Part shown: positions 1,087 through 62,148 of the stretch, piece after piece
Position numbering within the stretch: the first letter of the stretch is position 1
How the letters are laid out: every line of letters begins with the position of its first letter
Source of the DNA: Reclinomonas americana ATCC 50394
Lineage: Eukaryota
Assembly (NCBI GenBank): GCA_048213135.1
Contig: PS015034.1
Coordinates: forward strand, 74,054 to 138,053
Length of the DNA stretch: 64,000 nt
Direction: 5' to 3'
Position numbers and translations under genes: made by a program
The notes under the pieces: generated by a model
Database searches by the model: none
What the model saw: only the letters and a program-made list of their open reading frames with translations
What the model was told of the DNA's origin: nothing

Positions 1087-1489
1087 ATGAGTTCGCGAAG
1101 TCGTGTGTTGACGCTCTACCGCGGCATTCTTCGCGTTTCGTTGCCACCTTCATTTACTACGGTGTCGCCTATATGCATGGAGGGGGAAGAGGCTCACTGT
1201 GAATGGCGCAGGAGGCACGTGGAATGCCGACGGAGAATCGACGGGCGTTTGTGGTGGCCAAGGCGCGACGAGAGTTCCGCGCAGCACAGCGAGAGACGTG
1301 CCCGCGCAGTGCGTTTGTGTGTATGTATGTGTGTGTGTGGTCGTGCATCAGCTGATTGCATGATTGTCAGAGATCGAGGAGTGCATTCGCTTGGCAGAGA
1401 CGCAGCTGGAGACGGTGCAGGTGCAGGCGAAGCACTTGACGACGACGTTTGCAGCGTTTCCGCACTTGAATGGTGTTCCGAGGAGATAA
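1087..1489 (+). CDS. LYR-motif (Complex I LYR family) small mitochondrial protein, 87 aa, 3 exons (1087-1134, 1212-1308, 1371-1489)
   Basis: Spliced product MSSRSRVLTLYRGILREARGMPTENRRAFVVAKARREFRAAQRETCPRKIEECIRLAETQLETV...PRR* has the LYR motif and the downstream R-x-x-F motif. GT-AG joins are in frame. Confidence 0.85.
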
Positions 1490-1504
1490 AAAAACGAACG
1501 GGTT

Positions 1505-2623
1505 TTATAAGCAGCAGCGAGTCACGACAACTTGCGCCTCTTCGACGATGAAGCAGCGTAGTACGGTCTCCACCAGGCAGCGCTGTTCGTCAACCGACTG
1601 CATCTCCTGTGTGGCGAGCGTGGCGAGTCGTGCGCAGTGCAGTTCGTGGCGGGCGAGGGCGAGCGGTGAGGACCACACGCGTACGGAGCTGTCGTAGCTG
1701 CCGCTGACGATGCGGTGCGCGTCGTGAGTGATGGCGAGCGACGACACGCGCGACGTGTGCCCCTCGAACCGCCGCACCTCTTCTCCCGTCGCCAGCGACC
1801 ACAGCCGCACCGTATCGTCCAGGCTGCCGCTGACCGCGAACTGGCCACTGGCGCAGACGGCGACACACGTCACCTTGTGAGTGTGTCCCTCCAGTCGTTG
1901 CACCTCCTCGCCACTTGCCAGCGACAGAACGCGCACCACTGTGGTCTCCCCTCCAGTCACCACGTGCAGGTCATCGGGGGTGATGGCCACAGCAAACACT
2001 CGACAGAACAGGCTCTCGTTGCGACAGAGTTCCTCCCCACTTGTCAGCGACCACACCCGCACCGTTCCATCCCAACTCCCGCTCACCACGTGCCGGTTGT
2101 CGCGAGTGACAGCGACCGACGACACCGCTGCCATGTGACCTCGCAGCCACCGCACCAACTCGCCCGTCTCCATGGAACATATGCGCACCGCGCTATCCCA
2201 GCTGCCCGTCACAATGTGCTGGCCATCGGCAGTGACCGTGACAGCTCCCACCCAATCACTGTGGCCCTTGAATCGACGCACCTCTTCCCCGCTTGCCAGT
2301 GACCACAGACGCACCGATCCGCAGTTGTCGCTGCTCACAACGTGCTGCCCGTCGGGAGTGACGCACACGCAGCTGACGGTATCCTCGTGCCCTGCGATGC
2401 TCTGCACCTGCTCTCCACTCGTGACCGACCACACTCGGAGAGACCTGCTCTGGAATCCGCCACTAGCACTGATAATGTGCTGGCCGTCGGGAGTGAGGGC
2501 GACGGAGTTCACCGTCTCGCCGACTGGCAGCCGCCTGCAGTGGTACTCGGTGGAGGCAGTGATCATCGCGGAGAAGAGAAGGCGGAGGGATGAAGTTGGT
2601 AGAGGACGCCCTTCACACTGCAT
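1505..2623 (-). CDS. Intronless WD40-repeat protein (~7 blades); start may be the ATG near 2566
   Basis: Continuous ORF with repeated GH...V..VAVTPDG.HVVSGS.D.TVRVWSL.SGEEV units. Confidence 0.9.
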   Translation of the reverse strand: MQCEGRPLPTSSLRLLFSAMITASTEYHCRRLPVGETVNSVALTPDGQHIISASGGFQSRSLRVWSVTSGEQVQSIAGHEDTVSCVCVTPDGQHVVSSDNCGSVRLWSLASGEEVRRFKGHSDWVGAVTVTADGQHIVTGSWDSAVRICSMETGELVRWLRGHMAAVSSVAVTRDNRHVVSGSWDGTVRVWSLTSGEELCRNESLFCRVFAVAITPDDLHVVTGGETTVVRVLSLASGEEVQRLEGHTHKVTCVAVCASGQFAVSGSLDDTVRLWSLATGEEVRRFEGHTSRVSSLAITHDAHRIVSGSYDSSVRVWSSPLALARHELHCARLATLATQEMQSVDEQRCLVETVLRCFIVEEAQVVVTRCCL

Positions 2624-2628
2624 TGTCT

Positions 2629-5600
2629 TTAATAAAAGTCTCCACCACCACCGCCACCACCACCACTGCCACTACTGCTATTACTGCTGCTAATGGTGGT
2701 CATGTTGGTTCGCGACGACTGCCGATAGTGCTGCTGTTGCAACACGGACGGCGTCTGCCGGTGGTGTTCTTGGTACGAGGCCGTCGACGACGATGCACGT
2801 CGCGATTCACTGGCCACCGTGCGATGGGCGCCCGTCGCACCCAGCTCACGCAACTTGTGCTTCAGCTTGTGAACCTTGCGTTGCAGGGCCACTTTCTCGT
2901 CGGCGATCTCACTCGCCACCTTGCGGTACTCTGCAAACGGGAACCGCGCGATGAGAATCACTCGATGCCGACGTGCAGCAGCCTCCGTTGTACAAACCAG
3001 ACGTGAGCCCCTCAAAGTGCGCCAGCTGCAACCGCAGTTCCACCATGGTCTCCTGCGCAGCAACACGATCAGCATCTCCATTTCCTCCNNNNNNNNNNNN
3101 NNNNNNNNNNNNNNNNNNNNNNNNNNNNNNNNNNNNNNNNNNNNNNNNNNNNNNNNNNNNNNNNNNNNNNNNNNNNNNNNNNNNNNNNNNNNNNNNNNNN
3201 NNNNNNNNNNNNNNNNNNNNNNNNNNNNNNNNNNNNNNNNNNNNNNNNNNNNNNNNNNNNNNNNNNNNNNNNNNNNNNNNNNNNNNNNNNNNNNNNNNNN
3301 NNNNNNNNNNNNNNNNNNNNNNNNNNNNNNNNNNNNNNNNNNNNNNNNNNNNNNNNNNNNNNNNNNNNNNNNNNNNNNNNNNNNNNNNNNNNNNNNNNNN
3401 NNNNNNNNNNNNNNNNNNNNNNNNNNNNNNNNNNNNNNNNNNNNNNNNNNNNNNNNNNNNNNNNNNNNNNNNNNNNNNNNNNNNNNNNNNNNNNNNNNNN
3501 NNNNNNNNNNNNNNNNNNNNNNNNNNNNACCTCACACACGTGCCTACGCGTAGCGTGATGCTCTGGAGGCGGAACGCACCCAAACAGCATCGCTGCGAGC
3601 GCGCCTGGTGCAAATCCAGAGTGAACACGAGCGCACTCTCACGCAACTGCGCGAGGAACTGACGGTCACGCATCAGCGACAGTTGCAGTCGCTGCGTGCC
3701 GACATTGACCGCCAACTGGCCGCCCAACGTTCCGTTCACGAGCGTGAGGTCGGCGATCTGGAGGCGCGGCATCGCGCCACACTGGAGGCGCTCGATACAT
3801 CTGAAACGCGACTGGCCACCGCTCGTCGCGCGGAAGCCGAGCGCCTGGCCACGATGCAGTCGGAGCACTCGCGGGAGCTGAGTCAGCTGCAGAGTTCCAT
3901 GACCGAGCGCCTCGATGCGGAGCGTCGGCGCGCCGATGCCGAAGTGGAGGAGCGCGTGCACTCGATGCGAGCGTCGCAAGTGGCTGAACTAAATGCGGCC
4001 GAGTCGCGCCTGCGAGTGGAGCGTGAGCGGCAGCAGAGTCATGTCGAGGGCGAAGTGGAGAGGCGAGTGGAGGCTGTGCGGCAGGCCCACGTGCAGGAGT
4101 TGGCTGGTGAGTTCGGTGGGAGGTTGCATCGGCACAAGAGTGATTGTCTGACGCACGCACTGATTCTTTCTTGTTCTGTCTCTCGCAGCACTGCGCCAGA
4201 CGCTGCAGACGGAGCTGTCGCGTGTGGTATCCGAGGCGGACAGTCGAGTGCAATCCCTGCGCGAAATTCACCGCCAGGAGATGGTGTCGCGCATGGAAGA
4301 AGTGCGCAGTTCGTACGTCGAGGAGATTCGTCGCGTGCGTGAGACGGAGAGTGGCTCTCCGTCGCAGCTCCGCCGGTTGCAGTCGGCACTGGAGGAGCGG
4401 CAGCGGGAGGTGGAGCGACAGGCCGCGATGATGACTGAGATGGAGCGGCGATACCAGGCGGAGAAGCGGCAGTGGGAACTCGAAAGTCGGCGACAAGTGG
4501 CCGAGGTTTAGTGGAACGCACCGGGGAATGGGATTGTGAGATAGACGACTCACGCGTACAAAAATCTGCAGCTTCGCGAGAGCCACCGCCGCGACTCGCA
4601 GCTGGCGACGGAGCGCTTAGAGATGGCGCACGCCACGCAGATGCAGCACCTGGAGCGTCAACTTGCTGAGCAGGAGAATGAGCTGCGTGTGCGCATGGAG
4701 GCGGTGGCGCAGTCGCACAGTGAGCATCTGCGACGCGTGCGCGATGAGGCGACACTGGAGTACGAGAGGCAGCTGCAGGAGTTTAGACGCGTGCGATTCG
4801 CGGAGCGGCAGGAGGTTTTGTTGGTGGCCACTGTTGTTGTTAAACCGTGGCGCTGACGCGGGTGGTGCAGGAGTTTGAAGAGAACGACGAGGCCAGTGAC
4901 TCGGATGTCGATGCGGAGCATGAACGTGTGCATCTCGATCAAGTGCTGCGAACACTGCAGGAGCTGGAGCCGCGATTGACGAGGGTGAGATGCACGAGAA
5001 NNNNNNNNNNNNNNNNNNNNGCACGCGCCTCACGCAGGCTCTGCAAGACTGCTGCTCACCTCGGCACCGATCTGCGACTCACGCAAGCGTGCCAGCTCGC
5101 GCGTGTGAGTCGACTGCAACGCCTCCAACTCCTCGCTGTGCTGACGCGCAAGTGCATCCAACTGTGCGTGCGACGCGCATGAGTTGTATGCAATCTTGGA
5201 AGCGTGAGGGCACTTGCACTCACCGACTCCTGCAACCGTGTGTCGAACTGCTGCTGCAGGCGTGAAATCTGCGAAACGAATCGTGCGCGCGAATGAGCAC
5301 GCACGATCACACAACAGCAAAAGCGTGAGCGCTTGGTCACCTCGGCGGCATGCGATCGACGCAAAGTCTCCACCTCCTCGCGCCGGGCGGCAGCCTCGCG
5401 AGACACCTGCCAAGCGCATGCAAGTGAGTGGATGCATGCCCCGCGAAGACACAGACATTTGCAAGCACGAACCGCTGCACGCAGGTCCTCACTGGCCTTG
5501 GCACGCACGCCCTGCAGTGTCTCCTCGAACGACTGGCGCAGCGACTGGCTCTGGTTGTGCAACGCCGACTCGTGTCGCTGCTCAAGTGACTGCAGCTGGG

Positions 5601-8600: not shown

Positions 8601-11600
8601 GATCAGCAGAGGCACATCATGCAAGCAGCGCGCCCGGACTCACCGACAACTCGGCTGTCTGTGTGGCAGTCGTTGACACCAAAGCTGGCGTCGTGGGAGC
8701 CGCAGTGGAGGGTGTAGGAGACGCGGTGCTGACTGCAGACACTGGCAGCATGTGACGGAAGTGCGCCATGAGCTGTTCCAGGTACTGCACGTCCTCGTCT
8801 GCGCGACCAACAAGGAAACACACACGCCAGTGAGCCATAAATCACCAACTTCAGGAGTCGACACGCTTAGAGACCATGTGTGGAGAGCGCACTGGCCAGC
8901 TGCAGGCGGAGATGTGCGACCTCCTTGTCGAGGTACTTGATCTGCGTCTCTCGTTCCTCCAAGCATCGCGACCAATCTTCCGAATTCACCTGCAAAGCGC
9001 GCTGCTCGTGCACGGTCTCCAGCACGCGACTCAGAGTGGCCTCCTCACTGCACACGCGCGCACAAAAAATGTGGCAAATGAGTCAGTGCCGTTGTCACCT
9101 CGTCCATNNNNNNNNNNNNNNNNNNNNNNNNNNNNNNNNNNNNNNNNNNNNNNNNNNNNNNNNNNNNNNNNNNNNNNNNNNNNNNNNNNNNNNNNNNNNN
9201 NNNNNNNNNNNNNNNNNNNNNNNNNNNNNNNNNNNNNNNNNNNNNNNNNNNNNNNNNNNNNNNNNNNNNNNNNNNNNNNNNNNNNNNNNNNNNNNNNNNN
9301 NNNNNNNNNNNNNNNNNNNNNNNNNNNNNNNNNNNNNNNNNNNNNNNNNNNNNNNNNNNNNNNNNNNNNNNNNNNNNNNNNNNNNNNNNNNNNNNNNNNN
9401 NNNNNNNNNNNNNNNNNNNNNNNNNNNNNNNNNNNNNNNNNNNNNNNNNNNNNNNNNNNNNNNNNNNNNNNNNNNNNNNNNNNNNNNNNNNNNNNNNNNN
9501 NNNNNNNNNNNNNNNNNNNNNNNNNNNNNNNNNNNNNNNNNNNNNNNNNNNNNNNNNNNNNNNNNNNNNNNNNNNNNNNNNNNNNNNNNNNNNNNNNNNN
9601 NNNNNNNNNNNNNNNNNNNNNNNNNNNNNNNNNNNNNNNNNNNNNNNNNNNNNNNNNNNNNNNNNNNNNNNNNNNNNNNNNNNNNNNNNNNNNNNNNNNN
9701 NNNNNNNNNNNNNNNNNNNNNNNNNNNNNNNNNNNNNNNNNNNNNNNNNNNNNNNNNNNNNNNNNNNNNNNNNNNNNNNNNNNNNNNNNNNNNNNNNNNN
9801 NNNNNNNNNNNNNNNNNNNNNNNNNNNNNNNNNNNNNNNNNNNNNNNNNNNNNNNNNNNNNNNNNNNNNNNNNNNNNNNNNNNNNNNNNNNNNNNNNNNN
9901 NNNNNNNNNNNNNNNNNNNNNNNNNNNNNNNNNNNNNNNNNNNNNNNNNNNNNNNNNNNNNNNNNNNNNNNNNNNNNNNNNNNNNNNNNNACATGCAATC
10001 AACAAACCGATGCATGTCGTCCAGCACGCCACGCAGTTCAACAACGTCCACCGTACCGTGCGTCTCCAGTCGACTGAGCACCGCAAACACACGCTCGCGG
10101 AACAGTGACCGCTGTACGTGAAAGCACATTCACCAAGGTGAGAAATTAAAACAACCATTCGCGAAACTCTGAAGAACACCAGCGCAGATCACCAAATCGC
10201 GATACTCTTGCTGACAGTTGGTGAACTCGGCCTGCAGTTGGCGGATCTTCCACGTGACACCACGCATGCGGTCTTCGTACATCTGCAGGAGAGGGGGATC
10301 AGGGCTACAGAGAAGACACGATAAGGAAAGAGACGAAATAAAACGCAACAGACACCACACACTCGACGGTTTGCGTCTGGTGGCTCGTCTCCTCNNNNNN
10401 NNNNNNNNNNNNNNNNNNNNNNNNNNNNNNNNNNNNNNNNNNNNNNNNNNNNNNNNNNNNNNNNNNNNNNNNNNNNNNNNNNNNNNNNNNNNNNNNNNNN
10501 NNNNGCGCAGTCGCTCGTGTAGCCGGAGCGCCTGCACACCAGTCAGATCAAACTACACCAGTCCTCATACAACGTCGACGTCACCTCTCGGCGATACAAG
10601 TCGGCCGCAATGCTCAAAATCTCCGGGTTGCGACCCTCGAGTGCGGCCTCCATGTGCTCACGCAGATCGTGAGCGCGCAAATCCTCCAGTCGCCGAATGA
10701 GTTCGCATCGATCTGCCAGCGCCCGATCCTTGGTAGCGACGGCTTGTCGGAGTCCGGAAATCTCCTGCTCGCGTGCTTGCAACTCGGCGCGCAAGAAGTG
10801 AGCCTCGCGAGCTGCCTCGGAGGGCTGTGGCGCACACCAGCCGTGTGTGAGTGAGAGAGAGAGAGAAGAATGTCAATCCCTTCGCGCAACTTCGGCAGTC
10901 GGTGGCGATGGCGTGCGTGCAGTGGTGGCCGACGCACTGGCCAACTGCGCACTGCGGGAACAGCAAGAAGAACTATGTGAGACGGGAGGAAGACAGCACT
11001 GCTGCAGTGCTGGCTGACTAACCGAACAGACTCCAGTTCCTGGTGCACCTGCTGCAACTCTCGTTGCGAATTGTTGAGCTGTGGCGATGTCAGCAGCAAG
11101 AGAGACAAGCGGATGATGCAGCAGCACCTCGTACCTCGGCGCGCAGTGTCTCTGCCTCCATACGCCTGCGTCATGCACCACACATGAGTCAAACACGAGT
11201 GCAAATGCGTCGCTGACGGCATCACGACGACTCACTCTGTGCGCAACGCCTCAATGGTCTGCACGTCGGAGCGATGCACGCTCTCCAGCCGCGTCACCTC
11301 GCGCCGCGTTGCGTCCAGCTCGGTCAAGATCGCGGCCGACGCCTTGGCCGTGTCGCGGTCGGTCTGCTGTCGACCGGCATTGCTTCGCGCGTCCTCCAAA
11401 TCGCGCTGCAGGCGCGTGGCAGCATCGGTTGCGTCACGTGCTTGTCTTTGCAGCGCGGCAATAATCGACTCCTGATCACGAATCCGTTCATCGCGGCTCG
11501 TCAGATCTGACGTCTCGCACAGCAGCAAGTTGGCGCCATCCAAGTCGTCCTGTGCGTCGCAGTCGATGAGAATCAAAGAGAGAAAGCAAGAGAACACGTT

Positions 11601-14600
11601 GTGCCACCGCCACATTTACCTCCATGCATGCAATCTCGTTCCACAGATCGAGTTTCCACTGCGCAAGGCCACCAGGCTCGCCAGCGTAGGCTGCCGCTCC
11701 ACCCGGCTCACGCTCGTCGCCAGAGCTCGCCTGCAATGGTGGCGGAAGGCGCCGCCCGCCACCCACACCACCGTGCTCATCATCATCGCCTTCCTCGTCG
11801 TCATCACCATCATCATTGTGATCGTGGGAGTGGCGCTGGTCGTCGCGCACGTGGGAGAGGTGTGATTCGAGGGCGTTGATCTCGGTCGTCGCATTCGCAA
11901 TCTCCGTGTCAAGCGTGGCCTTTTCTCGTCGCAACTCCTCTGCGCCACACCATCAACATGAGTAAATGGAAAACAATCGATGCACACGCGTGCTACGTCA
12001 CGAACCGACGTGCAAACTCAAATCCAACGCGCTCTTCTCGTACTGTGCTGCACGATCTGCCAAGGATGTGGATGATTGTTAGCAACATTCGTGACTTTAG
12101 ATGTGCGTCCCAGAATGAGCACCAACCAGCCAGCGTATCACACTGCTCGGACACCTCGGTGCGCGTCGCTTCCAGATCGTGCAACTCGGCCGACGATCTG
12201 CTCCGACATACACGGGTCAGCAAACACCTTGAAAGCGCAGGGAGCGTGCGAGTACACAACTGATGAATGGCACGGTGTACGCGATTCAGTTCCGTCTGTG
12301 CCTCATGTAGCTGCTGCAGCGTCCTGTTTCGTGCAGGCAATGCACCGGGTTATAACACAGCTGACCAAGAAACAATGACAGAATAGTACGCGTACGCACC
12401 ACTCATGCTCCTGCTTCACCGAGGTGAGCGCTCGTCGGGATTCCGCCATTTCCGCATGCATTGCCGTCTCCGCAGGGCTTCTGCACACATCGTCAGCAAC
12501 GAGCTACTGCGCAGACACCTCACAAAGCGCAACGATTGCGTGGGTGACGGTGTCCGACCACTGCAGCCACACAAACACACAAGTCACACAACATGACTCA
12601 TGCACACCATGAGGCAAAGCGCCATCACAAACCGCGTGTACAATGGAGACTCGGCGCCCTCGATGAACGAGGAGGCACCCTGTGATGGGCGATGAGTCAC
12701 TCAATTCAGCCGACAATGCTGCGTGTGCACGCAACTGCCAGCTGCTGTTTGCCGCTCAGCATCGCTTTCAGTGCCGTCACCTGTTGCTCGCTCGTGCGCC
12801 GACTCTTTTGTTCCATCAGAAGATCCTCTTCGAGTTTGCTCACACGGGAGCGCAATTGAGCTGTGAGGCGCGCGCATCGCATTGGCATGAGACGCGCACA
12901 AACAGTGACAAACTTGAAAGCAGAACGCACAGATTTGCACCGTGTCCATGCGTGCCTCGTCGAGCGCGAGACCCTTTGTGACGTCCTCCGCCTTGTAATC
13001 GTCCAGCAGCGACTCGACGGCGTCGGCTGTGGCCTCCACCAGCGAGTGCACATCACGATGCTGTCGCAGCGACGAGGCCACACTTGCCGACATGACCGTG
13101 ATGACACGCCGTGACGCCAGCGTGCTGAGAAGGTCCACGGCAAAACCGCTGTACGCCGACGCATCGATCTTGGTCGAGGCCGTCTGGCGAGCGCGCACTG
13201 TGTTGAGTGAAGAGCACATACAAGCACGCACACACAGAAAAGGAGGGGAAGCATTCTCGCACCGAAGACACTGTGACGGCGTGCACCTCGTCCAGCAGCG
13301 CCTCTGTCTGCTGGTTGAGATGGCGCTGGGCCTTCAGCCGCGATCGCAGAGCACTGATCTCGGCATCGAGAGCCTGCTTTTCCGCTGTGAGAGTTTGGAT
13401 TGTGCGCAATCCAACGTTGCGTTCCACAGTGAGATTGTACACCGTCTCCTCGGCAAAGTTGCGGTACTTGGATGCCTCAATGAGGAAGTCTTGTAGCTGC
13501 TGGTGAATGCTCAGGTAGCGTTGCGAGACGGCGTAGCCAGAGGACGATGAGGAGCCCTGTGCGTGTCGGGGGCGGAATGAGGGCACGGAGAACTATAAAG
13601 TCGACGTGAGAAAAAAGTGCTTTAGGCAAAGACGAACCGTGTTCTGCGAGTCTGCACAAGACGCAATGAAGAAGAATGTGAGTCGAGTGCATTGCGTGGC
13701 GGCGAGGGGCGCAGGGCGACGCACCGCTGACAATCACCAGGCACTCTTGATTGAGTTGCGAAATCTTCTCCAGCAGATCGCTCGATGCCGACGGCTCCGA
13801 CACGGTCAGCACAGCACTACGACGGAGGGCGGCTGCATCGTGGTGACCCGTGTCACTGCCGCTCTCTGCGGCACTCGCCATGAGACACGTTTCGCACACG
13901 AAGAGACACGGCACATGCACTCACCTCCGGAACTCAAGCCCAAGTCGTCGCCTGTCACATCCATCACTGACTGATCGAATGCCGCCATGCGTTCCAGCAC
14001 GCTTGCCGTCGTCCCGCGACGATTCTCCAGCTTGCCCAGTTGCTCCTCAATGTCACTCTCCTGCCGGCGGCCCTCAAGCAGCTGCGTCTCCAGCTCCGCG
14101 AGTCGCTCGACCATTTGTGCGTGGAACCTGCACACAGATGAATACTCGTTTGCGACAGAGAAGAGACTGAGTGTCACACGCACCGAGTCTCCGCTCGGCT
14201 GGCGCGCAAGTCTGGCGTCGATGTGGGTGGCGTAACAAACGTGCCGGAGGTCTGTGGTCCAGTGGCGGTCGGCGATCCATGCACCACGGTGGTGTGCGTC
14301 GCAGTTCTCTCCGAGCCCGTCATGGTAGTGGTGGTAAACGACGGTGCCTCGCTGAACTGACGATCGATACGCGCCTCGTCTAGTTCCTGTTGCAGCAGTG
14401 AGAGTTGCTGCAGGGCGCGATTCAGCTCCACGGCCTTGCGTTGAAGCTGTGCAGACACGCGCGTGAGCCACGCATGTGTCGATCGGTGACAAAGGGATGC
14501 AAGGCGCACACCATCTTCGACTTGATGTCGAGCTCCTCCACCAATTCCGTGTTGCGCGTTTGCAGTCGCGCACACTCGTCCTTGACTGCGTCGACGCGCT

Positions 14601-15537
14601 TCTCCGCGATCTCTGCACGCGCTCGCTGCTCTTCCGCCTCGATGCGATACCTCTCCGCCTCCTTCTTTCGATCGGCAGCCACACGACGCATGGCCTCCAA
14701 CTCGGCTACACGATGCACCACAGTGAGCTTTCATCCCCCCTGGCCCAACTCACTCTCCCTCGTCGGCACGCAACACTGATCCCAATGCTCATCGGCTCGC
14801 CGACGCTCCTCCATGGTAACCGCATCGCCATCCAGCACCGCCAGCGACCGCAACGCAAACACTGTCAACGCACGCCAATGCGGCAACGACTCGAGCGGGT
14901 TGTCGCGCAGCGACAGCTCCGACAACTGCGGCAACGCTCGCAAGCGCGTCACATCGCGCACAACGCCCAACAGGTTGCCCGACAAGTCCACCCGCCTCAA
15001 CACACTCAATCGCTCCCACGGGAAGCGCTTCGGCAGGCGTTCCAGGCGATTCCACGACACATCCAGCACCTCCAATCGCGACAACACCTCAATTCCATCG
15101 AGGCACTCCAGACGATTATCCGACAAGTTGAGCTCAGTCAGCGATGCAGCCACCGCGGAGAGACCATCCGCGCGCGATATCAAGTTGTGTGAGAGATTGA
15201 GAGAGATCAGAGGCGTCGCAGCCGCGCTCAAGTTCTCAATGCGCTGTTTTGGCGGGAAAAGAAGCGATCAATCGCTGAGTGCGAGAGTGAGTGTGTGAGT
15301 GAGAGACGCAACAACGATCTTCAAGTCGTCTTGCCCGACGAGCACCAGAGTGGCGCCTGCGGAAGTGGGCGAGGAGGCTGTGCGTGCGCGCACGAGTGAC
15401 TCGGACATGTGTCGCGTGAGGACCGGACTGGCGCCGCCGCCTTCTCCGCCTGGTTGCACCAGAGGCGCAGGCGGAGGAGGCGTGTGTGCCTCTGTGGCTT
15501 GAGGCGTGGAGGCGCGGCGGCCTCCGCGACTGGTCAT
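2629..15537 (-). CDS. Very large multi-exon protein with N-terminal LRRs and extensive coiled coil (centriolin/LRRCC1-like); could be more than one gene
   Basis: ATG at 15537. SDS22-type LRRs (LISLNLSHNLISRADGL, LTELNLSDNRLECLDGI) and an LRR cap (LRDNPL...LAVLDG) at 14780-15245. Many E/Q/R/L-rich heptad exons follow, ending GGGGDFY* at 2629. Interrupted by gaps. Confidence 0.65.
3529..5000 (+). CDS. Coiled-coil exons on a gap-flanked contig, probably part of the surrounding minus-strand gene but inverted in the assembly
   Basis: The contig begins inside an intron (…GTAG|CGT GAT GCT) and ends inside an intron (GTGAGA). It has no start or stop of its own, and its composition matches the flanking gene. 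Confidence 0.65.
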
Positions 15538-23793: not shown

Positions 23794-25816
23794 CTATCTT
23801 GCCGCACACGCAGCCGCCGACGCTCGTGTCGCTGCTGGTGCTGACGGTGGTGGTGCACCGATGCTGCTGACCACCGACAGCGTCACCGACGAGTCTTGGT
23901 CCTGGTCCGCCGCCTCCCACCACATTTGAATCATTTCGTCCGACGGCACCGCCGGCACAGGTCCCACTCCATATTGATTCGTCACCGCGACGCAGTCATT
24001 CATCCACATCGTCACGCGTGACACCAGCTCCTGCCACAGGGCACGCAGGGTCGACTGGCGCGCCGCTCGCATATTGGCGTCGACGCGCGGATCAGCTGAA
24101 CCCATAATGGCCGCCGCACTGGCGGCAGCCGCCGCGGCACCGGGGCGACGCTGCTGCTGCTGTTGTGGTGGTGGTGGTGGTCTCTCTCCGTCAACCACGA
24201 TTCCCGACGGTCCAGCACCTGGCCTTCTTTGTGGCTGCTGTTGTTGCTGTTGTGGTTGTTGTTGTTGTTGTGCACTACCCTCTGCCTCGTCGGCTCCTCC
24301 ATCAGTCCACCCAGGCGCACTACACCTCAACTTGTGCACCATCAGGTTGTGCGTCGTCAGTGCCATTGACTGCGTCGAAGACGGTGAGTCATTCTCTCCC
24401 TGTAAGAGCAAGATAACAAATCAAGACGCAACAGGTCGGAAGGCCTTCGGGAGCAGGCGCTGCAGTTTTTGCAGCACCGACTCGGCCATTTGTGCGGCAG
24501 TGGCGGGCGCCGCCGCCACCAGCTCCGCCGCCTGCACGGCAGTCATGACGGGCGACGAGAAGGCCGAATCAGCCGGCGACGAGCCAAACGCCAGCGACAC
24601 CGACAAGCTGGAGCCCGGCATGGTCTGCGTGGACGAAGCCGCCGCCGACGTCGTCAGCAGGTGGGTAGTGGTACCGGTGCCCGACATGCGGCGGTCGCGG
24701 GCCTCCGCCGGCAACGCAAACGAATCGGTACGCTCCGACACATCGGCCGGCTCCACCGGCGCCGACGCCGACAGAGTGTTGGTGCCACCATCCGACGGTC
24801 CAATGCTGCGGTCGGCAGCCACCACGGCCAGTGCCGGCGATGGCTTGTACACACCTTGGTGTGCGTAGTCGGCCGGCGTGGCCGGGCAACCCAACGGCAT
24901 CATCACCGTGGGCGCACTCGGCGACAGCGGCGAGGCCTTGGTCGGNNNNNNNNNNNNNNNNNNNNCGTCTTTTGTGGTGACGGCGACGAGGCACTCAGCG
25001 TAATGGCCGCCGCAGCGTGCAGTGCACTCTCCGTGGCCGACGACACGCGCTGATGTACGTGCGGATGTCTTGCGGGTGTGACAGCGGGCGACGGCGACGT
25101 GGCTCCGACAGCCACCGCAGCGACAGCGGCCGCCATGGCCGCCGCCGCCGGCGCCATCGAGTCAGCCTCGGGATCCGCGTCCCACACCTCCTCCTCGTCG
25201 TCACCATCGGCCTCGGTCGCATCCTCATCGGGCACGCGCGGCACATCCACATCTGCCGCCGCTGCGACAGCAGCANNNNNNNNNNNNNNNNNNNNGCAGC
25301 AGCAGAACGCGGGGCCGGCGGCCGCTCCTCTTCCGACTCGGGCACATACGCATTCGTCGTGGTCCTTCTCGCCACATCCACACTATGCCGCGGCGGCTGC
25401 GCAATGGCCTGCAGCAGCGCCGGATGCCAGTCGGCAAACAGCGGCGTGGAACTCGAGCGCGAATGCATCGCCGCCGAGGTCGCCGGACACATGGCCACTC
25501 CCATTGCCGCCGCGCCACTGCCACTCCCAATGCTCTGCTGCAAATGATACGGCGACGCTGGTGGCTTTCTACTCGCCAACACATGCTGCTGCTGCTGCTG
25601 CTGCTGTCTATGATACGCATGATAAGCGGCCGCGGCCGCAGAGGGCGGCGATGACGGCAGCACTGTTTTTGAAGGTGTTGTTGTCAGAGGTGGTTTCTTG
25701 CTTGGTCGCTGATTGTTGGCGGCCTCACACAGGCCGGCCATGGCCTCGGCAATGGATGAGGAGGCATTGGAGTCTCCACTCGCCGTCGGGCGATGAAGGA
25801 ATCGGCGCGCCAACAT
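23794..25816 (-). CDS. Hypothetical low-complexity (Ala/Ser/Pro/Gln-rich) protein
   Basis: Long open frames across two small gaps and one probable intron (~24400-24440). Short globular-looking C-terminal part (LRALWQELVSRVTMWMNDC...MWWEAAD). Start is uncertain. Confidence 0.55.
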
Positions 25817-41451: not shown

Positions 41452-41803
41452 CCTGTGCGCGGAGCGCCTTCTCCGCCGCGCTGCATCGTGCACGAGAAGC
41501 GCCCTTCTCCTGAATAGCATCGCGCAGCTTATCGCCCGCCAGTCGCACACTGCGTGCATATCGCTTCGCTGTGCGACGCAGCTCTTGTGCTGTGGTGACC
41601 TTGTCGGCCAGTCGCGGACCAGGCGCCGAAGCACCACGCAGAGCTGTGTCCGGATTAGTGAATGGGAGCAAGACAGAGAGGCAGCGATTCGCAATAAGAG
41701 AGAGAGAGAGAGAGAGACGCAACATCGTGCGTGGACGGCGGCAACGGCGACGCATAACAGCAGTGTGACAATGAGTGCGGCAACGTAGAAGGGGCGAGTC
41801 ATG
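41452..41803 (-). CDS. Secreted protein, first two exons (signal peptide + basic helical segment); continues into the gap
   Basis: MTRPFYVAALIVTLLLCVAVAAVHAR-S-LRGASAPGPRLADKVTTAQELRRTAKRY...KALRAQ, followed by a GTGAG donor. Confidence 0.6.
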
Positions 41804-53392: not shown

Positions 53393-55159
53393 TCACAGTT
53401 TCGCCTGCAGCAGTGATGAAGGTAACACTGGTGCTGGAGTTGTCCGTGTCGATCGTTCCGGTGCGCTAGCTTGCTGCTCCCCCAGCCACTTGGCAATGTC
53501 GGCCCACAGTGGTCTGCCGATCTGATGTCAGCACATCGTTGATAGAAGAAGTGGATGAGTGCACAGATTGTACGGAACTTGCTGGAGACGCGGAAGCAGT
53601 CAAAGTGACCTGCAAGTCAACGTCAGTGAAGACGCAACGGACGATGATGGTGACGGTGAGCAGACCAATGTGCTTGAGGTTGTATGACGACGGGTCAATG
53701 TGTCGACGATCAACGAAGGATGAGTGGCGATACACCTCTGCCGCGAGCGGGTGAGCAAGCTGAGTGGTGGCAGCATATTTCACGAAATGCATACCGTACG
53801 CCAACGAGTCCGCGGCCTCCTTGGGGCAGTATGCCTGGTCGTCGGTGAAGGACAGTGACAGGATCGGGGCACGGATCTTCTGGTATGCACTCCACTGGCG
53901 CATGTGGTTCGGGCGGAACATGTACCTGGTGAGCAAGCGATGCCTGAGTGAGTTGTCCACGACAAAGTACGCAGGCATCACGCACTGTGGATGGCGACCC
54001 CAGTGCGTCCACTGTTGCATCACACCAGCTGGCAGCGACTGCAAGCAAGATGAGAGACTTGCCTGACGGCCTGCAGCGTGGCGATTGACAACTCACCTCG
54101 CCCATGCCGATGAGATGCGACGGAAAGTACCCGTACACGCGCGTCAACAGCGGCCCCCAGACGTACCACAGTATGGTAAGCGATACCCGACTACGTGTCG
54201 AGTCAGCGCACGATCGCACGCAGCGTGCAGGCGATCGCGAAAACGCAACTGCAGGCTCCACGGCCAGTTTCGCAACGCGCCGACTTGCGCAGCCACGAGA
54301 ACCACCGCTGCACGGATCGAGCTCAGTTGAGGCACGCATACAAGCAAGCACCAAACACACAGTCTCACCGTCCACGCGGCTCGCCAGCTCCGGTCGCAAC
54401 ATGCCAATGATCTGCCCGCCGAGCGAGTGACCGACCACATCGAACCGTCGCGCCTGCACGCTCTCCAAGCAGAAGTGGGCCATCGCCGACAGATCGATGT
54501 GTCCCCACGTACTCAGCGACGCCGAAAAGCCGCGCAGGTTGACGGGCGATCCCTATTCACAGCTGGCGCGTGAGCAACAACAACAGCGCGGAGTTGGCAT
54601 ATGCATCGCATCGGGGTTGACGAGAAGACCTCCTTCTGCGGTCGCCTGCTCGGCGGCACACTCCCACCAATGCCACGGTAATCGAACAGCACCACTGTCG
54701 CTCCATGCTCACGACACAAGTACTCCGCAAAGGCCGCATAGAACCGCGTACCGCGGACTCCGATGGCGGGAACGCACAACACGCAGTGATCGCGCAGTGA
54801 CAACAACCCATCGCCACCACTGGTGTTGGTGTACTGCACGCCCGTTAGCGTGAATCCATCGTCAGCAANNNNNNNNNNNNNNNNNNNNNNNNNNNNNNNN
54901 NNNNNNNNNNNNNNNNNNNNNNNNNNNNNNNNNNNNNNNNNNNNNNNNNNNNNNNNNNNNNNNNNNNNNNNCTCGTCAGCACACGCAACTCACACACGAA
55001 CGCAAGCAAGACACCAACCCCAGAGCTGCTGGTGTTGAAGGCCTTGAAGTACTGCGCACGCCACGCCACACGTCCATGAGTACACTGCGACACACACACG
55101 CACACACTGTGCGTACTAACCTGCTGGCAGTACGTGCTCGGCACACCCCACTGCACCAT
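53393..55159 (-). CDS. Bacterial-type predicted alpha/beta hydrolase (COG4757-like) with C-terminal AKL
   Basis: DDGFTLTG, AIGV...FYAAFAEYL, FDYRGIGGS, WGHID, GHSLGGQ, LPAGVMQQW, SFTDD and IGHFDCFR motifs. Ends PLWADIAKWL...LLQAKL*. Confidence 0.85.
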
Positions 55160-55891: not shown

Positions 55892-58407
55892 GTGTTTGGC
55901 GACATTCACGGCCAGTTTCCTGATCTGCTCGAATTCTTCACCACATACGGATCGCCCAATCACCGCACTGGCGACATCCGCTTCGTCAACTATGTGTTTG
56001 TGGGAGACTTTGTGGATCGCGGCCGCTACTCGCTGGAGGTCATCGTGCTGCTGTTTGCGTTGAAGCTGCGGCATCCGGAGCGTGTGTGTTTGGTGCGCGG
56101 CAATCACGAGGACCGACTGATCAATGAGGTGGGTGTGAGAGTCTTGGATGGCCGATGCCACCATCGTCTGCGCAAGTGTACTGAGCGCTTGCGGTGTTGT
56201 TGTTGTTGTTGTTGTTCGCAGGCGTACGGTTTCCTCGACGAATGCCGAGAGCGACTGGGCGAGCAGGTCGGTGAGGATGTGTGGAACATGTACAATGAGG
56301 CGTTTGACTGGCTGCCACTTGCGTGCACGTGCGTACCGCCTCGCCACTCTGTTGTTGCTGCTGTTGCCAACTGATGTGCAACACACAGAATCGAGCAAAA
56401 GATTTTGTGCATCCACGGCGGCATTGGCGGCTCGATTCATCATCTGGGCCAACTGCAAAACATCAAGAAACCAATAGAGGTGCCAGAGGACATTGAGTGC
56501 GAACAAGATCGGATCATCATCGATGCGCTGTGGAGCGACCCGACGGAACACGATCGCGTGCATGGTGTACATCCGAACCTGCGTGGTGACAACATTGTGG
56601 CCTACGGCCCCGACCGCGTCAAGCAATTCTGTCGCGACAACGGGTTGGACCTCATCTTGCGTGCGCACGAATGTGTGGATGGCGGATACGAGTTCTTTGC
56701 CGACGGTCACTTGATCACCATTTTCTCGGCTACCAATTACTGCGGCAGGTGTGTGAGGCGTGCGGGTGGCAAGTCGGTGGCATGTTGCTCATCTAATGCC
56801 CTTTTTCGCAGATACGAAAACAACGGTGCGATTGCCGAGATCACACTGGAGGGACGTGGTCAGGCCATCAAGGTCCGACAGAAGGTAATCAGCGCCAAGT
56901 CCGCCGAGGAGGCGGCCAGAAGGTGGAATGCAACGCAGTTCAGGCCGCCAACGCCACCGCGTGGGCACGGCAAGAGGAGTCCTCGCGACGAGGTTGACGA
57001 CGAGGTCTACGAGAAGAGGGTGTGTATAGTTTGTGTGTGTGATCGACTGTCGTTTCTGCTGTCAATGCTCACAGTGCATCTTGTGGTCAGTTACCCAAGG
57101 TGTCTGCATTGTCGCTGGACGAGTCACCACCGTCGCCACCAAAGCGACAGGGAAGCACCGCTCCGTTGCGGAATCGCTTCTCCAATCAGGGTGGTGCGAA
57201 TGGCGCGGGTGGCAGCGGAGCGCTCGTGGGCGGCAGTGGTGTGGCGCAGAGGTACTGCACTGTCCCCCGCGCATGTTGTTGATTGTGTCGCCGTTGCTCA
57301 TGTGACGCCCACCCCCACAGTTCACCTGGGATGATGCACCAGAGCGAGCGCATGACGACCATGCTGTCGCGTGGCGGAGGTGTCGGACCGTCGTCTCCTG
57401 CCCCTGTACCCAATGTCAAGTACGCCGGCGAGTATTTCCCGCCCGAGGTGGAGCAGTTCTTGCGAGTATCCGAGGTGTCGGCCGAGCGCATTGGCCATGT
57501 TGCGTGCATGGTAGACAGAGGGAGGGGGAGGAAGGGAGAGAGAGAAGAAGGGAGGAGGGAGGGAGGGAAAGAGAGAGAGAGATAAGAAAGAGGTATGAGT
57601 ATGTGTAAGAGAGAGGCAGCGTGCGGGGGGCAGTGGGGTTGTGTGTCGGTGCCCCATCGCTCACGCATTCTCCACAGGCGCGAGAGCTGTACGACGTCGC
57701 GCTGCGGGACGAGCCGGTTGCTGTGCGGGAACAGGGTCTCAATGAGGCACAGTTCACCAATCTGTTGGTGGAGTTGGGCGCCAATCGTCACTACTGCCGT
57801 CAGGTTTGTCGGATGGCATCGTTCGGAGGGAGAGATGTTTTGTCGCTCATATGAACTGTGTTGGTGCTCCAGTACTTCAAGGCGTTTGGTGGCATAACAA
57901 CAGGTCGCGTCAATTTCGCGCAAATGGTGGCTGGCCTGGTGGTGCGTGCTGTGCATTCCTCTCTGAAGCCAGGCGTGGGGGAGTTCGTTTCNNNNNNNNN
58001 NNNNNNNNNNNTCACCTTGGTGTTGTGTTTGTGAACAGGCCATGGATCCCAACACGCCACACGCGGTGGACGACATCACGGGTGAGACGCGTCTGCGATA
58101 CATCTTTGCCGTGTACGACCTGAATGAGGACGGCACGCTGGAGCACGACGAGTTGATCCACATGATACGACACATTCGACGAGGGCGCAACGAGGAGACG
58201 AGCACGCAGACGGTGGAGAACGACGTCGCCGAGTACATTGCCAGTCTGCGAAAGCAGACCGGTACTGCCAAGTCCTCGTTTACGATGCAAGAGTTTTGCG
58301 ACGCTGTCAAGGCACTAACTTCCGTGGCACGTCCACTCTCTTCCGACTGCCACGAGCGCCGTTTTGACGCACGCGCCGTGAGTGGTCGGGAGCTTGTATT
58401 TGAGTAA
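55892..58407 (+). CDS. PPP-family Ser/Thr phosphatase with a BSU1/PPKL-like catalytic domain and C-terminal EF-hand(s); 5' end is in or before the gap
   Basis: GDIHGQ, GDFVDRG, RGNHE, HGGIG, LWSDP, RAHE and FSATNYCG motifs; RPPTPPRG tail; canonical EF loop DLNEDGTLEHDE at ~58117. Confidence 0.9.
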
Positions 58408-58610: not shown

Positions 58611-59919
58611 TTATTCGGCAGCGGCCTCTCCATCGGCAGCGGGTGCNNNNNNNNNNNNNNNNNNNNNNNNNNNNNNNNNNNNNNNNNNNNNNNNNNNNNN
58701 NNNNNNNNNNNNNNNNNNNNNNNNNNNNNNNNNNNNNNNNNNNNNNNNNNTTCCGCCTCCGCTGCTGGTGCTGATTCCTCCTCTGCTGCTGCTGGTGCTG
58801 CAGCAGCCTCCTCCGCTGGTGGCTCGGGCTCTGCAGCCGGCGCAGCCTCAGGCTCTGGAGCTGCCGCTGCTGCCTCCTCTGCAGGCGGCTGTTCGGCGGC
58901 CGGAGCCTCCTCGGCAGGCGCCTCTGCTGCTGGTGGCGCCGGAGCCTCACTGGCGGCCGGAGCCGGCTCATCGACAGCAACCGGCGCCTCTGCACCGGAG
59001 CCAGAGCCGCCCTCGTGCTCCTCTTCGTCAGCAGCAGCAGATGCAGCAGCTGCCGGTGGCGCGGGTGTACTCACAGGGTGCGACACTGGTGCAGCCGCCA
59101 CATGCGCCTCACCTTGCCCCTCGCCTCGCCACGGTTGCGAATACGGCTCACCCTGCATGCACCACGGCCGCCAATGAGCAACGCCGGGGGATCACACACA
59201 CTCTGCACAGAGAGATGCATCGCACCTTCTCCACGGCTTTCCGCGCCGCCACAAAGTTCTCAAACAGCTGCTGCAGCACCGGCGTGATGATGCCGTCGAC
59301 TTGATCCACCAGGCGACCGCCCTGTGTCGGTTGCGAGTGAGAGAGGGATAGAGGAGAGGAGGAGGAAGAGAGACAAGTGGCACTCACCCAGTAGAAGAGA
59401 AAGAGGGGCTTGGAGTGCCCTATCCGCTCCGTCAGCATCGTGACCAACTCACGCTCCACCGGCCTCAACCCGCCCTCCACCTTGGACGCCGTCTCCACCG
59501 CCGTCTCACAGGCGATCTGTGCATGTTGAGCAACGAGACAGCTCACAGAGAGACACAGAGAGATAGACACACCTTCAGCATACGAAAGTTGATCGATTGG
59601 CAGTCGGACTTGGTGTACCAGGCACGGAACGACGGCGCAATCACCTTGCTCGACCCTTTCATGCATGAATGAACGAAAATCAGCATTCATCTCACTCTCA
59701 CTCTCACGCATATGCTTGCACACTGACCTGCCCACTGCGTGTACACCTCCAACAGAGTCACTGCATTGCCATCGTCGGCATCGGCACGCAGGCGGTCGCA
59801 CAGAGGCAGCAAAGAGTCGCACTCAACATGCACCTGTGTGAGAGACGGATTGTGAGAGAAGGACACAGAGAGAGAAAGAGACGGAGACAACGCACCTCGA
59901 CATCCTTCTTTGGTGGCAT
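58611..59919 (-). CDS. Thioredoxin-fold protein (dynein-associated/NME8-9-like Trx domain) with an Ala/Glu/Pro-rich tail
   Basis: MPPKKDVE...LLEVYTQWAGSSKVIAPSF...SKPLFLFYW|GGRLVDQVDGIITPVLQQL matches the Trx pattern (DVY..WCGPC; P.FLFY..G.LV..V.G...P.L). Confidence 0.7.
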
Positions 59920-60053
59920 CTTCTTGTTTGAGGGAGGAGGAAGCACGCAGTCAACAAGCAGAACGAACTGTCCCTTGGTGTCGTAAACGCGCGCGAGCGG
60001 AATGGCGGGAATGCATTGTACCTACATATTTTGTCGCGTTTTTGCCACGCACG

Positions 60054-62148
60054 ATGTCTCTCTCACCATCGCTCCTCGACAAGCGTCGCATCACGGTTCG
60101 TCTCCTCTCTCTGTTCTTTGCAGCGTCTCACTTTGCCTGTCTGCATTCTTGTGTGTTGTGCGTGTGTTTTTCCTAATGTCACGAGCGACTCTCTCACGCG
60201 CGCGCACTCACCGCCCACGCACGCACGCACGCACCACAGGTCATCTACCGCCAGCAGGCGCAGACTGTCAGCTGGTACCCCGATGCCAGCCCCGCTGGTA
60301 TGCACTGCGCTTTGCCGATTCTATAAGTGTGTCGCGCGGTAAGATGGTGCCATGTCGACTCACCACGAGCCCTCTCTCTTGCGTTTTGCGTTTGCGTGCA
60401 GAGATTGAGCGCCTGGTTCGTCAGGTGTTTGACATCCCCGCGCACCACTCGATCCTCCTGCGCGATCTCGATGGAGACGCGGTCGTGGTGTCGCCCAACG
60501 TTTCGTGCCCATCGCATTCTTCCGTGCGCGCGTGTGTGTGTGTGCGACGCATCATGCTTGTTCTTCTCACAGCTGCCGAGCAACCGCACCTTCTCGCTCA
60601 CCGTGGACGATACCTATCTGCGCCCGTCGTCGCCTTGTTGCGTCTGCGTCTGCATTGGTGTCTCAGGGGTGTCGCTGACGTGTGCATGCATTGCAGATCG
60701 CTCGACCACGCTGAGCGCCAGCTACTCGTCGCCATCGCGCACGTCGCCGTTCCGCTCGTCGTCGCCGGTCCTGTCCCGCTCGGCCGCCTCGCCGTTCCGC
60801 TCCTCGTCGCCGCTGCGCTGTTGCGTCTTTCGTTTTTCTCTACTGCTTCTTNNNNNNNNNNNNNNNNNNNNNNNNNNNNNNNNNNNNNNNNNNNNNNNNN
60901 NNNNNNNNNNNNNNNNNNNNNNNNNNNNNNNNNNNNNNNNNNNNNNNNNNNNNNNNNNNNNNNNNNNNNNNNNNNNNNNNNNNNNNNNNNNNNNNNNNNN
61001 NNNNNNNNNNNNNNNNNNNNNNNNNNNNNNNNNNNNNNNNNNNNNNNNNNNNNNNNNNNNNNNNNNNNNNNNNNNNNNNNNNNNNNNNNNNNNNNNNNNN
61101 NNNNNNNNNNNNNNNNNNNNNNNNNNNNNNNNNNNNNNNNNNNNNNNNNNNNNNNNNNNNNNNNNNNNNNNNNNNNNNNNNNNNNNNNNNNNNNNNNNNN
61201 NNNNNNNNNNNNNNNNNNNNNNNNNNNNNNNNNNNNNNNNNNNNNNNNNNNNNNNNNNNNNNNNNNNNNNNNNNNNNNNNNNNNNNNNNNNNNNNNNNNN
61301 NNNNNNNNNNNNNNNNNNNNNNNNNNNNNNNNNNNNNNNNNNNNNNNNNNNNNNNNNNNNNNNNNNNNNNNNGTATCTCTCTCTATCCGTGTCGCCGACA
61401 GTGCACCACAGCGGCCTCGCCGCGACTGTCTCCGCACCTGACAAGTTTTGTGTGTGTGTTTGCCTCTTATAACTCCCCTCTCCACCGCGTGGTGGTGCTG
61501 ACCGACCCTTTTTCCGCACAGCGAGCCCGCGTTTTGCTGGCGGTGCCTCGTCGTCGTCGTCGGTTTTCGCCTCGTCGGGCCGTTCGCTGTCGCCGTCGCG
61601 CGCGGCGTCGTCGGCGCTGGCCAAGGAGTCGCTGGACCGCATCGACAAGCTGCGCAACTTTGAGAAGCACGTGCGTGAGCTGCAGGACAACAAGTTCCGC
61701 GAGTATTTCACCCTGTCGCCGGTGACGGGCGATTACATCTGGGCCAAGGATGTGACCTCGGGCGAGTTCATGAGCGCCATCTCCACCGATCTGTACTGGA
61801 ATGCNNNNNNNNNNNNNNNNNNNNGGGAGCGTGCGGCCTGCTGTCGACTCGTCGGCGGGATGAGGTCGATCGCATCCTCAACGGTGCGCTGTCGGCGTAC
61901 ATGGATGCGGTCCGCGAGCTCGGACGTCGTGGCAACTTTGATTTGGTGGTGTCGATGGAGGCCGGCTTTGCACGCGAGGCGCTGCGGGCTGCCTACACCG
62001 AGACCATCAACGTCATCCAGCAGATCATCCACGAGAAGATCAAGGAGGCCGAGATCTACACTCGGTGAGTTTAGCGGACGCGCGCCGTGCCGGAGAGGGT
62101 GGAGTGGAACTGACGAGGGGCTTCTGCGTGCGCAGTGACGCATACTAA
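60054..62148 (+). CDS. Hypothetical protein: N-terminal ubiquitin-like/PB1-like segment, Ser-Pro-Arg-rich linker, helical C-terminus
   Basis: In-frame exons MSLSPSLLDKRRIT|VIYRQQ...SPA|EIERLVRQVFDI...LLRDLDGDAVVVSPN|LPSNRTFSL...EAEIYTR|DAY*. Confidence 0.6.

Follow-up and report, generated by a model that had tools for sequence, protein, structure and literature searches.

Do the introns of a single nuclear genome begin with one donor consensus, or can a second consensus, shifted by one base, serve alongside it as a regular alternative? This question is raised by a stretch of 64,000 nucleotides (nt) from Reclinomonas americana ATCC 50394 (contig PS015034.1; the whole stretch is called the window hereafter), which is nuclear eukaryotic DNA with ∼58% G+C, 21 assembly gaps and ∼25 genes that contain many short introns. 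An earlier note on this DNA had claimed that many of its introns start with the ordinary donor motif displaced by an extra T, and had listed 18 such GTT-type sites together with three ordinary donors; each of these 21 sites was found to carry the motif ascribed to it, on the strand given. Here, we describe the U2-type GT-AG introns of the window as having two kinds of 5' end, a main kind with GTG[A/C/T]GT after an exonic G and a second kind with GTTG[C/A]G[T/C] after an exonic T or A. The second motif equals the main consensus into which one T has been inserted immediately behind GT, and has no G at positions +5 and -1. It is highly probable that donors of this second kind form a real set; the description in two kinds, taken jointly with the mechanism proposed below for reading the offset motif, is an account to which we give modest confidence.

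Evidence that does not depend on any donor model was obtained from a Sec24-like gene. A HMMER search with a separate exon of this gene (17402-17791) gave 100 matches, and a profile was built from the 30 full-length ones. When the three reading frames were compared with this profile, its positions ran on contiguously across the GTT donors at 17142, 16800 and 16670: positions 531-575 end at 17142 and positions 576-619 start at 17080, positions 618-648 and 642-672 correspond to 16889-16797 and 16758-16666, respectively, and positions 671-864 start at 16603. In addition, all in-frame and stop-free GT/GC..AG pairs within ±60 nt of each junction were scored against the profile. At all three junctions the GTT donor ranked first, 4.8, 6.9 and 6.3 bits ahead of the runner-up, which in two cases was the reading from a GC 3 nt downstream. 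Ordinary donors of the same gene (GTGAGT at 18260, GTGAGA at 17400 and GTACAC at 16953) likewise ranked first, and two other junctions were left undecided by the profile.

Two further pairs of junctions lie in genes for secreted proteins in which NHL repeats precede cadherin-like/Ig-like modules; these genes form a tandem duplication (29303-34016 and 36388-41000, minus strand) with a period of ∼7.06 kb. Some stretches of the two copies, including introns, are 99-100% identical and others have diverged, and such patchy identity suggests gene conversion. The uninterrupted NHL repeats of these proteins show the spacing D-x-x-N-x-x-[I/V]-R, which is reproduced exactly by splicing at 31886/38950 and at 33281/40359. 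Indels between the paralogues at the former junction fall only inside the intron, and if the frame at 33281 is read in phase 1, it meets a stop codon that starts 2 nt past the donor. In the LYR-motif gene, exon 2 enters the Complex1_LYR profile (59 positions; E = 3.9e-4) at position 13 and exon 1 ends with ..LYRGILR, which therefore supplies the missing start of the profile and supports the donor at 1135. By these comparisons, protein evidence fixes eight predicted introns of the second kind (three in Sec24, two NHL pairs and one in the LYR gene), and shows that donors of this kind are, in all likelihood, true exon-intron boundaries in several unrelated genes. In the test for restored homology, the remaining junctions of the class were placed by reading frame only; among them, frame and nearby stop codons support the donors at 4506, 20110, 12735, 10890, 24432, 54249, 60500 and 60637. 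Sites 28729/35854 and 10349 are located where the reading frame has no say.

To examine donors at the scale of the window, we built a small gene finder, which scores coding sequence with a self-trained three-periodic Markov model and assembles exons and introns by dynamic programming. Its introns must start with GT and end with AG, and no other knowledge of donors is built in. A later, signal-aware version also rewards YAG ends, intron lengths of 45-130 nt and a YTSAY motif in the final 48 nt, and the donor choices of three models are given below: the first crude agnostic model, the signal-aware agnostic model and a mixture-retrained model. In the kept genes of the donor-agnostic model, GTTG[CA]G[CT] was present at 8 of 106 donors, compared with 72 of the 7857 GT sites as a whole (binomial p = 6.8e-6), and the ordinary donor logo emerged unprompted in the agnostic set (-1G about 60%, +3G 61%, +5G 60% and +6T 46%). 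A two-component mixture fitted from random starts to 116 agnostic donors returned the main motif with a weight of 0.80 and the second motif, preceded by T or A, with a weight of 0.20. Retraining with a single donor matrix reduced the class from 7 to 2 members and lost the three homology-supported Sec24 junctions as well; the single-matrix model was rejected as a fair description of these donors because it suppresses the class even where homology backs it.

The offset itself was analysed statistically on the donor-agnostic set. Of 80 donors with no G[ACT]G[TC] core at +3 to +6, 13 had this core one base later, compared with 357 of 7059 background GT sites (p = 2e-4). The base inserted in these register +1 donors was T in 11 of 13 cases versus 88 of 357 in the background. 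Weaker excesses were observed for registers +2 (7/80, p = 0.035) and +4 (9/80, p = 0.021), and none for +3. GTT donors without +5G had G at +6 in 13 of 17 cases, compared with 279 of 1016 background GTT sites (Fisher p = 4.5e-5), and had +6G together with a pyrimidine at +7 in 12 of 17 versus 184 of 1016; when one tandem copy was dropped, the excess of +6G persisted (11/14, p = 1.2e-4). G was the last exon base in only 1 of 13 offset donors but in 52 of 68 donors with +5G (p = 4e-6). The one-base offset is thereby shown to be statistically specific. Because the +6G/+7Y excess, the insertion of T and the depletion of -1G all appear in an unbiased set, the description given in the earlier note (an extra T, no +5G, G at +6 and a last exon base other than G) holds, and the explanation by intron composition, which it had itself named as a possible objection, fails.

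With regard to abundance, GTTGCGT occurs 34 times on both strands of the window, compared with 15.8 copies expected under a third-order Markov model. Inside the modelled gene spans, 18 copies are in sense and 6 in antisense orientation; 12 of those in sense serve as donors in the model. Our survey of all 34 copies revealed further ones that have a CT[C/G]AC-like motif and CAG 55-90 nt on, including copies at 12735, 16670, 17142, 24432, 54249 and 10349 (all on the minus strand) that are absent from the earlier list. All of these, with 10349 only as a possible case, are considered as likely additional members, together with 16800 (GTTGAGT) and 10890 (GTTGCGC), also on the minus strand. The mixture-retrained model contains 110 introns, of which 17 start with GTTG[CA]G[CT], or 18 if GTTTAGT is counted; a conservative share, after one tandem copy and the ambiguous members were removed, is about 12 of 98 (∼12%). 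Thus, donors of the second kind account for roughly 12-16% of modelled introns, or about one in six or seven. A limited full-text literature search did not find a description of such a GTTGCGT donor class in print, and the same search with the heptamer GTTGCGT returned primer matches only.

How might such donors be recognized? We propose that the major spliceosome would recognize the downstream core, GCGU, at a position one base more distant from the cleavage site, and this could be achieved in two ways. A single U of the two at +2/+3 would be looped out or, alternatively, the U1 helix would be slid by one so that the intron G+1 occupies the place of the exon G-1. Since G+1 would replace G-1 in a slid helix, the latter arrangement would explain why -1G is absent, and this absence fits a slid helix better than a simple bulge. 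We calculated pairing energies by ViennaRNA duplexfold with any register left free, using the standard U1 pairing sequence ACUUAC (as given in bioRxiv 10.1101/2022.06.08.495308), which may not be the sequence of U1 in this organism. The mean energy was -1.25 kcal/mol for the class, -7.55 kcal/mol for the main class and -2.57 kcal/mol for random GT sites, so that a noncanonical register brought no clear energetic gain with standard U1; moreover, position -1 is usually occupied by T, where a slid U1 helix would favour A. Both observations speak against our proposal in its simple form. As pairing to ordinary U1 is no better than background, pairing alone does not explain how these donors are selected, and for this reason some help beyond plain pairing to the standard U1 5' end would be required, which might come from U1C or Luc7, from a later check by U6/U5 or from an altered small nuclear RNA (snRNA). 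A hypothetical U1 complementary to the main consensus barely separated the class from the background (-6.47 versus -5.20 kcal/mol), and only a hypothetical 5' end complementary to GUUGCGU achieved separation (-9.76 versus -4.52 kcal/mol for random GT sites). The earlier note had interpreted these sites as donors read by U1 in a shifted or bulged register, possibly with the aid of variant U1/U6 snRNA or of altered U1C/Luc7-type factors. Its view that they are real and frequent donors, formed by the main consensus moved one base, is retained here, but the register pairing itself is not borne out by the calculated energies. As a whole, two donor kinds with an offset reading by one machinery is the explanation we favour, and we regard it as somewhat probable.

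A known system close in form is that of rare human GUUAAGU sites, for which Roca and Krainer are said to have described, in 2009, U1 pairing in a shifted register. Like these sites, the class begins with GUU and has its pairs moved by one, and the replacement of G-1 by G+1 would fit the lack of -1G observed here; unlike them, it has a core of GCGU/GAGU and not AAGU, and a -1 position dominated by T where a slid helix favours A. The resemblance in form drawn in the earlier note therefore stands, but the human cases are rare and the class is frequent. Bulged pairing provides a second comparison. According to Tan et al. (2016; PMC4856993), experiments in human cells have established both shifted-register pairing of U1 and pairing that leaves a bulge at +3 (or +2); predicted human bulge sites number 54 (+2/+3) and 36 (+3) among 201,541, and all validated noncanonical registers together amount to ∼1.5%. 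As in the human bulged sites summarized there (Roca et al., 2012, via PMC4856993), GU is followed by an extra U, +5G is missing, the consensus is regained one position later and cleavage occurs at GU. In contrast to those figures, the class here comprises about 12-16% of modelled introns, and whereas human bulged sites in the same source have enough flanking pairs for an energetic gain, the calculated pairing of the class with standard U1 is negligible.

On the other hand, the two classes might be read by two RNAs, if (U)GUUGCGU is bound directly by the 5' end of an additional U1-like snRNA of variant sequence, or of a single U1 that has been altered. This alternative survives best and is possible, although we doubt it. 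Over seven positions the class varies less than the main class, and it is without -1G, as would be expected from a dedicated complementary RNA, and the energies above, which separate the class from background with a complementary 5' end and not with standard U1, point in the same direction. There are also precedents in a preprint (bioRxiv 10.1101/2022.06.08.495308): changed U1 sequences match the donors of Entamoeba (GUUUGU with U1 ACAAAC) and Mastigamoeba (GUACGU with ACGUAC), and Physarum is said to have both standard and modified U1 candidates. The likeness to these organisms, an unusual protist donor with T at +3, raises the possibility of a changed snRNA rather than a changed register; however, Entamoeba and Mastigamoeba, as far as this source describes them, have one transformed consensus in which +5G is kept, whereas here two classes occur in the same genes and the second lacks +5G. 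The same source also gives contrary examples, as Mamiellales (GYGCGY donors) and Thecamonas (+4C) keep the standard U1 sequence despite their donors. No snRNA gene was found within the window, where a tRNA-Thr was the only match at the gathering threshold and E ≤ 1 added four weak non-snRNA matches, all far under their gathering scores. Finally, an offset of one machinery is the simpler reading of a second motif that exactly resembles the main consensus with a T added. A wider form of this idea, in which two donor grammars, GUGNGU after an exonic G and (U)GUUGCGU, arise from two U1-type RNAs or from U1 and another sequence-reading factor, appears unlikely. If it were true, the intron class would represent a genome-wide, RNA-encoded split within the major spliceosome.

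A more sceptical explanation is that the boundaries have been misplaced, and that GTTGCGT is no more than a word often met in introns or coding regions rich in TG/CG. Several points speak for this and have to be set against a real class. The sample is 64 kb of one genome, and every junction was derived from sequence (frame, homology and gene models). The counts of 17-18 among 110 introns are partly circular, as the model had been given the second motif, and the likeness of the class to the main class in branch motif and length is partly built into the scoring. Six of the 18 sites listed earlier (31181/38241, 31886/38950 and 33281/40359) are three paralogous pairs of a single tandem duplication rather than six independent cases, and the sites at 14774, 11247, 31181/38241, 19034 and 53578 are ambiguous or unsupported. 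In addition, the Bayesian information criterion of the mixture fit did not prefer two motifs (3121) to one (3112); the second motif describes the donors but has not been proven to be necessary. Against the explanation by misplaced boundaries, eight junctions are fixed by independent protein evidence, the excess in the donor-agnostic model is clear (p = 6.8e-6), the +6G excess remains without the paralogous copy, the inserted base is specifically T and the strand asymmetry is 18 to 6. We therefore consider an artefact very unlikely. Within the limits of the 64 kb and of the junctions modelled in it, the class looks like a real and frequent set of one-base-offset donors, for which a register shift of standard U1 alone looks insufficient.

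Could these introns belong to another splicing system, such as a transformed minor (U12-like) one, or be copies of a mobile intron? A long uniform intron start without exonic -1G recalls U12-type donors, and an abundance of ∼15% recalls lineages with expanded minor introns. U12-type introns have the donor RTATCCTT and the branch site TCCTTRAY near the 3' end. The donor GTTG[CA]G[TC] does not resemble the former, and the branch-like motifs of the class (CTCAC, CTGAC and CTCAT) are those of the main class. In the final model all 18 class introns start with GT and end with CAG (14) or TAG (4); their median length is 66.5 nt versus 69.5 nt in the main class, with a minimum of 56 nt in both, and YTSAY is present in the last 50 nt of 16 of 18 class introns versus 66 of 78 main introns, at a median distance of 18 versus 20 nt from the 3' end. 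An all-versus-all blastn of the 110 introns detected similarity only between tandem paralogue pairs and in a CT microsatellite, which argues against a mobile intron (introner). Thus, a separate or mobile system is hardly credible and is already largely refuted, and the class introns are probably best grouped with the ordinary U2-type GT-AG introns, as members that use a second donor grammar. With respect to the main class, Irimia and Roy reportedly described, in 2008, strict GTGCG(T/C) donors with ACTGAC branch sites in Mamiellales green algae; GTG[C/A/T]GT together with CT[C/G]AC-like branch motifs is a similar grammar, but the window is intron-rich and its signals are looser. The weakest alternative, in which the introns are GC-AG introns starting with GCGT.. 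3 bases downstream after an additional GTT (valine) codon, keeps the frame, can always be applied to GTTGCGT and ranks second at two Sec24 junctions, but it scores 4.8 and 6.3 bits lower there, does not preserve the D-x-x-N spacing in the NHL repeats, cannot apply to GTTGAGT, GTTGAGC, GTTTCGT and GTTTAGT, and offers GCGT[CGT] where GC donors usually need a strong consensus unlike it, so that it has almost no probability left.

Offset reading of 5' splice sites has been known only as a rare human exception, shown site by site. If the class is what it appears to be, a genome in which roughly one intron in seven starts in this way would be a natural, large-scale case of it. Such a genome would test how the cleavage site is fixed when the pairing cores for U1 and U6 sit one base too far away, and could show whether proteins or variant snRNAs carry the specificity. 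There is also a practical side: as gene finders with a single donor matrix lose the class (from 7 to 2 here) and shift or truncate exons, gene annotations for this organism and related ones probably contain errors at these junctions.

Table 1. Donors and introns assigned to, or considered for, the second class, and genes of the window (coordinates refer to the window; gene names are from Pfam or homologues).
Feature	Donor	Positions	Strand	Evidence or remark
77-nt intron, LYR-motif gene	GTTTCGT	1135..1211	+	Complex1_LYR profile continuity
66-nt intron, coiled-coil gene	GTTTAGT	4506..4571	+	In-frame TAG 3 nt past donor; all three models; sole member with -1G
Possible 67-nt intron in 5' untranslated region	GTTGCGT	10283..10349	-	Acceptor CAG abuts ATG of modelled gene
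66-nt intron, same coiled-coil gene as 12735	GTTGCGC	10825..10890	-	Agnostic model; in-frame stop 15 nt downstream
Ambiguous donor	GTTGCGC	11166..11247	-	Signal-aware agnostic and mixture models; in-frame GTGAGT 12 nt downstream
56-nt intron, coiled-coil gene	GTTGCGT	12680..12735	-	Agnostic model; in-frame stop 27 nt downstream
69-nt intron, LRR_9 gene, ambiguous	GTTGCGT	14706..14774	-	LRR_9 match and intron length
69-nt intron, LRR_9 gene	GTTGCGT	15244..15312	-	Mixture model only; agnostic chose GT 27 nt upstream
68-nt intron, Sec24-like gene	GTTGCGT	16603..16670	-	Top of 19 pairs, 43.8 versus 37.5 bits (GC reading 3 nt downstream); profile ∼670 joins 671
59-nt intron, Sec24-like gene	GTTGAGT	16742..16800	-	Top of 39 in-frame pairs, 26.6 versus 19.7 bits
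61-nt intron, Sec24-like gene	GTTGCGT	17082..17142	-	Top-scoring pair, 56.3 versus 51.5 bits for next
Candidate long CT-rich intron, Sec24-like gene	GTTGCGT	18681..19034	-	Agnostic and mixture models; uncertain
150-nt first intron, Sec24-like gene	GTTGCGT	19961..20110	-	Reading frame only
63-nt intron	GTTGCGT	24370..24432	-	Signal-aware agnostic and mixture models; in-frame stop 9 nt downstream
Doubtful site after ..FYVSD, NHL gene	GTTGCGT	31175..31181; paralogue 38235-38241	-	Open reading frame stops 15 nt on
57-nt intron, NHL copy A	GTTGCGT	31830..31886	-	Spliced ..YIAD/LWNY.IR fits NHL spacing
61-nt intron, NHL copy A	GTTGAGC	33221..33281	-	Spliced ..YVAD/STNNTVR fits NHL spacing
67-nt intron, NHL copy B	GTTGCGT	38884..38950	-	Same junction as 31886; not independent
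61-nt intron, NHL copy B	GTTGAGC	40299..40359	-	93% identical to 33281 intron; not independent
80-nt intron after signal-peptide-like first exon	GTTGCGT	41644..41723	-	Open frame across junction only
Unsupported site of the earlier note	GTTCCGT	53572..53578	-	In no model; mixture took 53621, first agnostic 53638
59-nt intron, alpha/beta-hydrolase gene	GTTGCGT	54191..54249	-	..GALRNWPWSL joined to RVSLTILWYVW.. in frame
179-nt intron, PPP-type phosphatase gene	GTTGCGT	57499..57677	+	Donor in all three models
73-nt intron, gene starting near 60055	GTTTCGT	60500..60572	+	One open frame by eye and translation; gene finder did not call gene
60-nt intron, same gene near 60055	GTTGCGT	60637..60696	+	Frame kept; CTGAC 22 nt before CAG
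Donor after open frame, intron cut by assembly gap	GTTGCGT	60820..60851	+	N run from 60852
LYR-motif gene		1087-1490	+	Pfam
WD40 gene		1508-2671	-	Pfam/homologues
LRR_9 gene		about 14130-15410	-	Pfam
Sec24-like gene		15806-20158	-	Pfam/homologues
Secreted NHL-repeat gene, two tandem copies		about 29.3-34.0 kb; 36.4-41.0 kb	-	
WDR3/Utp12-like gene		42317-46560	+	
Alpha/beta hydrolase gene		53393-54868	-	
PPP-type phosphatase then EF-hands		55826-58407	+	
Histone H2A gene		62553-63073	-	

Several entries in Table 1 deserve comment. In the LRR_9 gene, the Pfam match reaches residue 161 of the open reading frame, beyond the donor chosen by the agnostic model (14804); an in-frame GTGAGT lies 21 nt downstream of the GTT donor at 14774 and would make an intron of 48 nt, under the minimum of 56 nt. 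For 24432, the first crude model used the same donor with a more distant acceptor, and for 57499 its acceptor was placed 9 nt further downstream. The site at 31181/38241 may not be a donor, as it would leave the exon in phase 0 and the next NHL exon is in phase 1. Pfam searches with the exons around 57499 and with the gene at 60055 gave no match, and a homologue search with the hydrolase exon (longer-protein setting) gave neither a scoring match nor a profile.

In the Sec24-like gene, the first intron joins an exon with the start codon in frame to an R-V-D-P..L-P exon, and an in-frame TGA is located 6 nt past its donor at 20110. The acceptor of 19034 is uncertain, and the Sec24 profile does not separate this intron from a single intron of 800 nt starting at 19219. 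The segment modelled as a long intron here (18681-19034, minus strand) consists of 354 nt of CT microsatellite and CCCCTTC-like low complexity. The Ser/Pro-rich 'exon' that flanks it may have been inserted specifically in this lineage, or could in fact belong to the 800-nt intron. Among 1.8 billion representatives, the nearest full-length Sec24 proteins are scattered over protists, plants and animals, with about 28-38% identity over the trunk exon; one fragment of 104 amino acids from a read assembly reaches 71% identity, and no other close match was found. Judged from these identities, the Sec24-like protein is unusually divergent, and the lineage seems to be either poorly sampled or fast-evolving. 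A metagenome scan found no related Sec24 locus, and a homologue query with a Sec24 exon in the longer-protein setting gave no scoring match.

Some other features of the window were also observed. Over the whole window, modelled introns have a sharp length floor of 56 nt and a median near 68 nt, and several independent introns are exactly 56-57 nt long. The homologue search with the WD40 gene returned generic WD40 proteins only. Between the PPP-family catalytic domain and the EF-hand pair (Pfam EF-hand_7, E = 1e-6) at 55826-58407 (plus strand) there is a gap of 20 N, and the two parts probably represent one PPEF-like gene split by this gap. The histone H2A gene (62553-63073, minus strand) has a first exon of 29 residues, an 89-nt intron with the donor GTTTGT and an H2A.Z-like C-terminal motif. 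The sole RNA gene found in the window is a tRNA-Thr (anticodon CGT) at 27631-27702 on the plus strand. Positions 1-560 of the window contain irregular tandem repeats with units of ∼60-120 nt, in which the words ttgcaatgcacttg and ctccactcaca occur.

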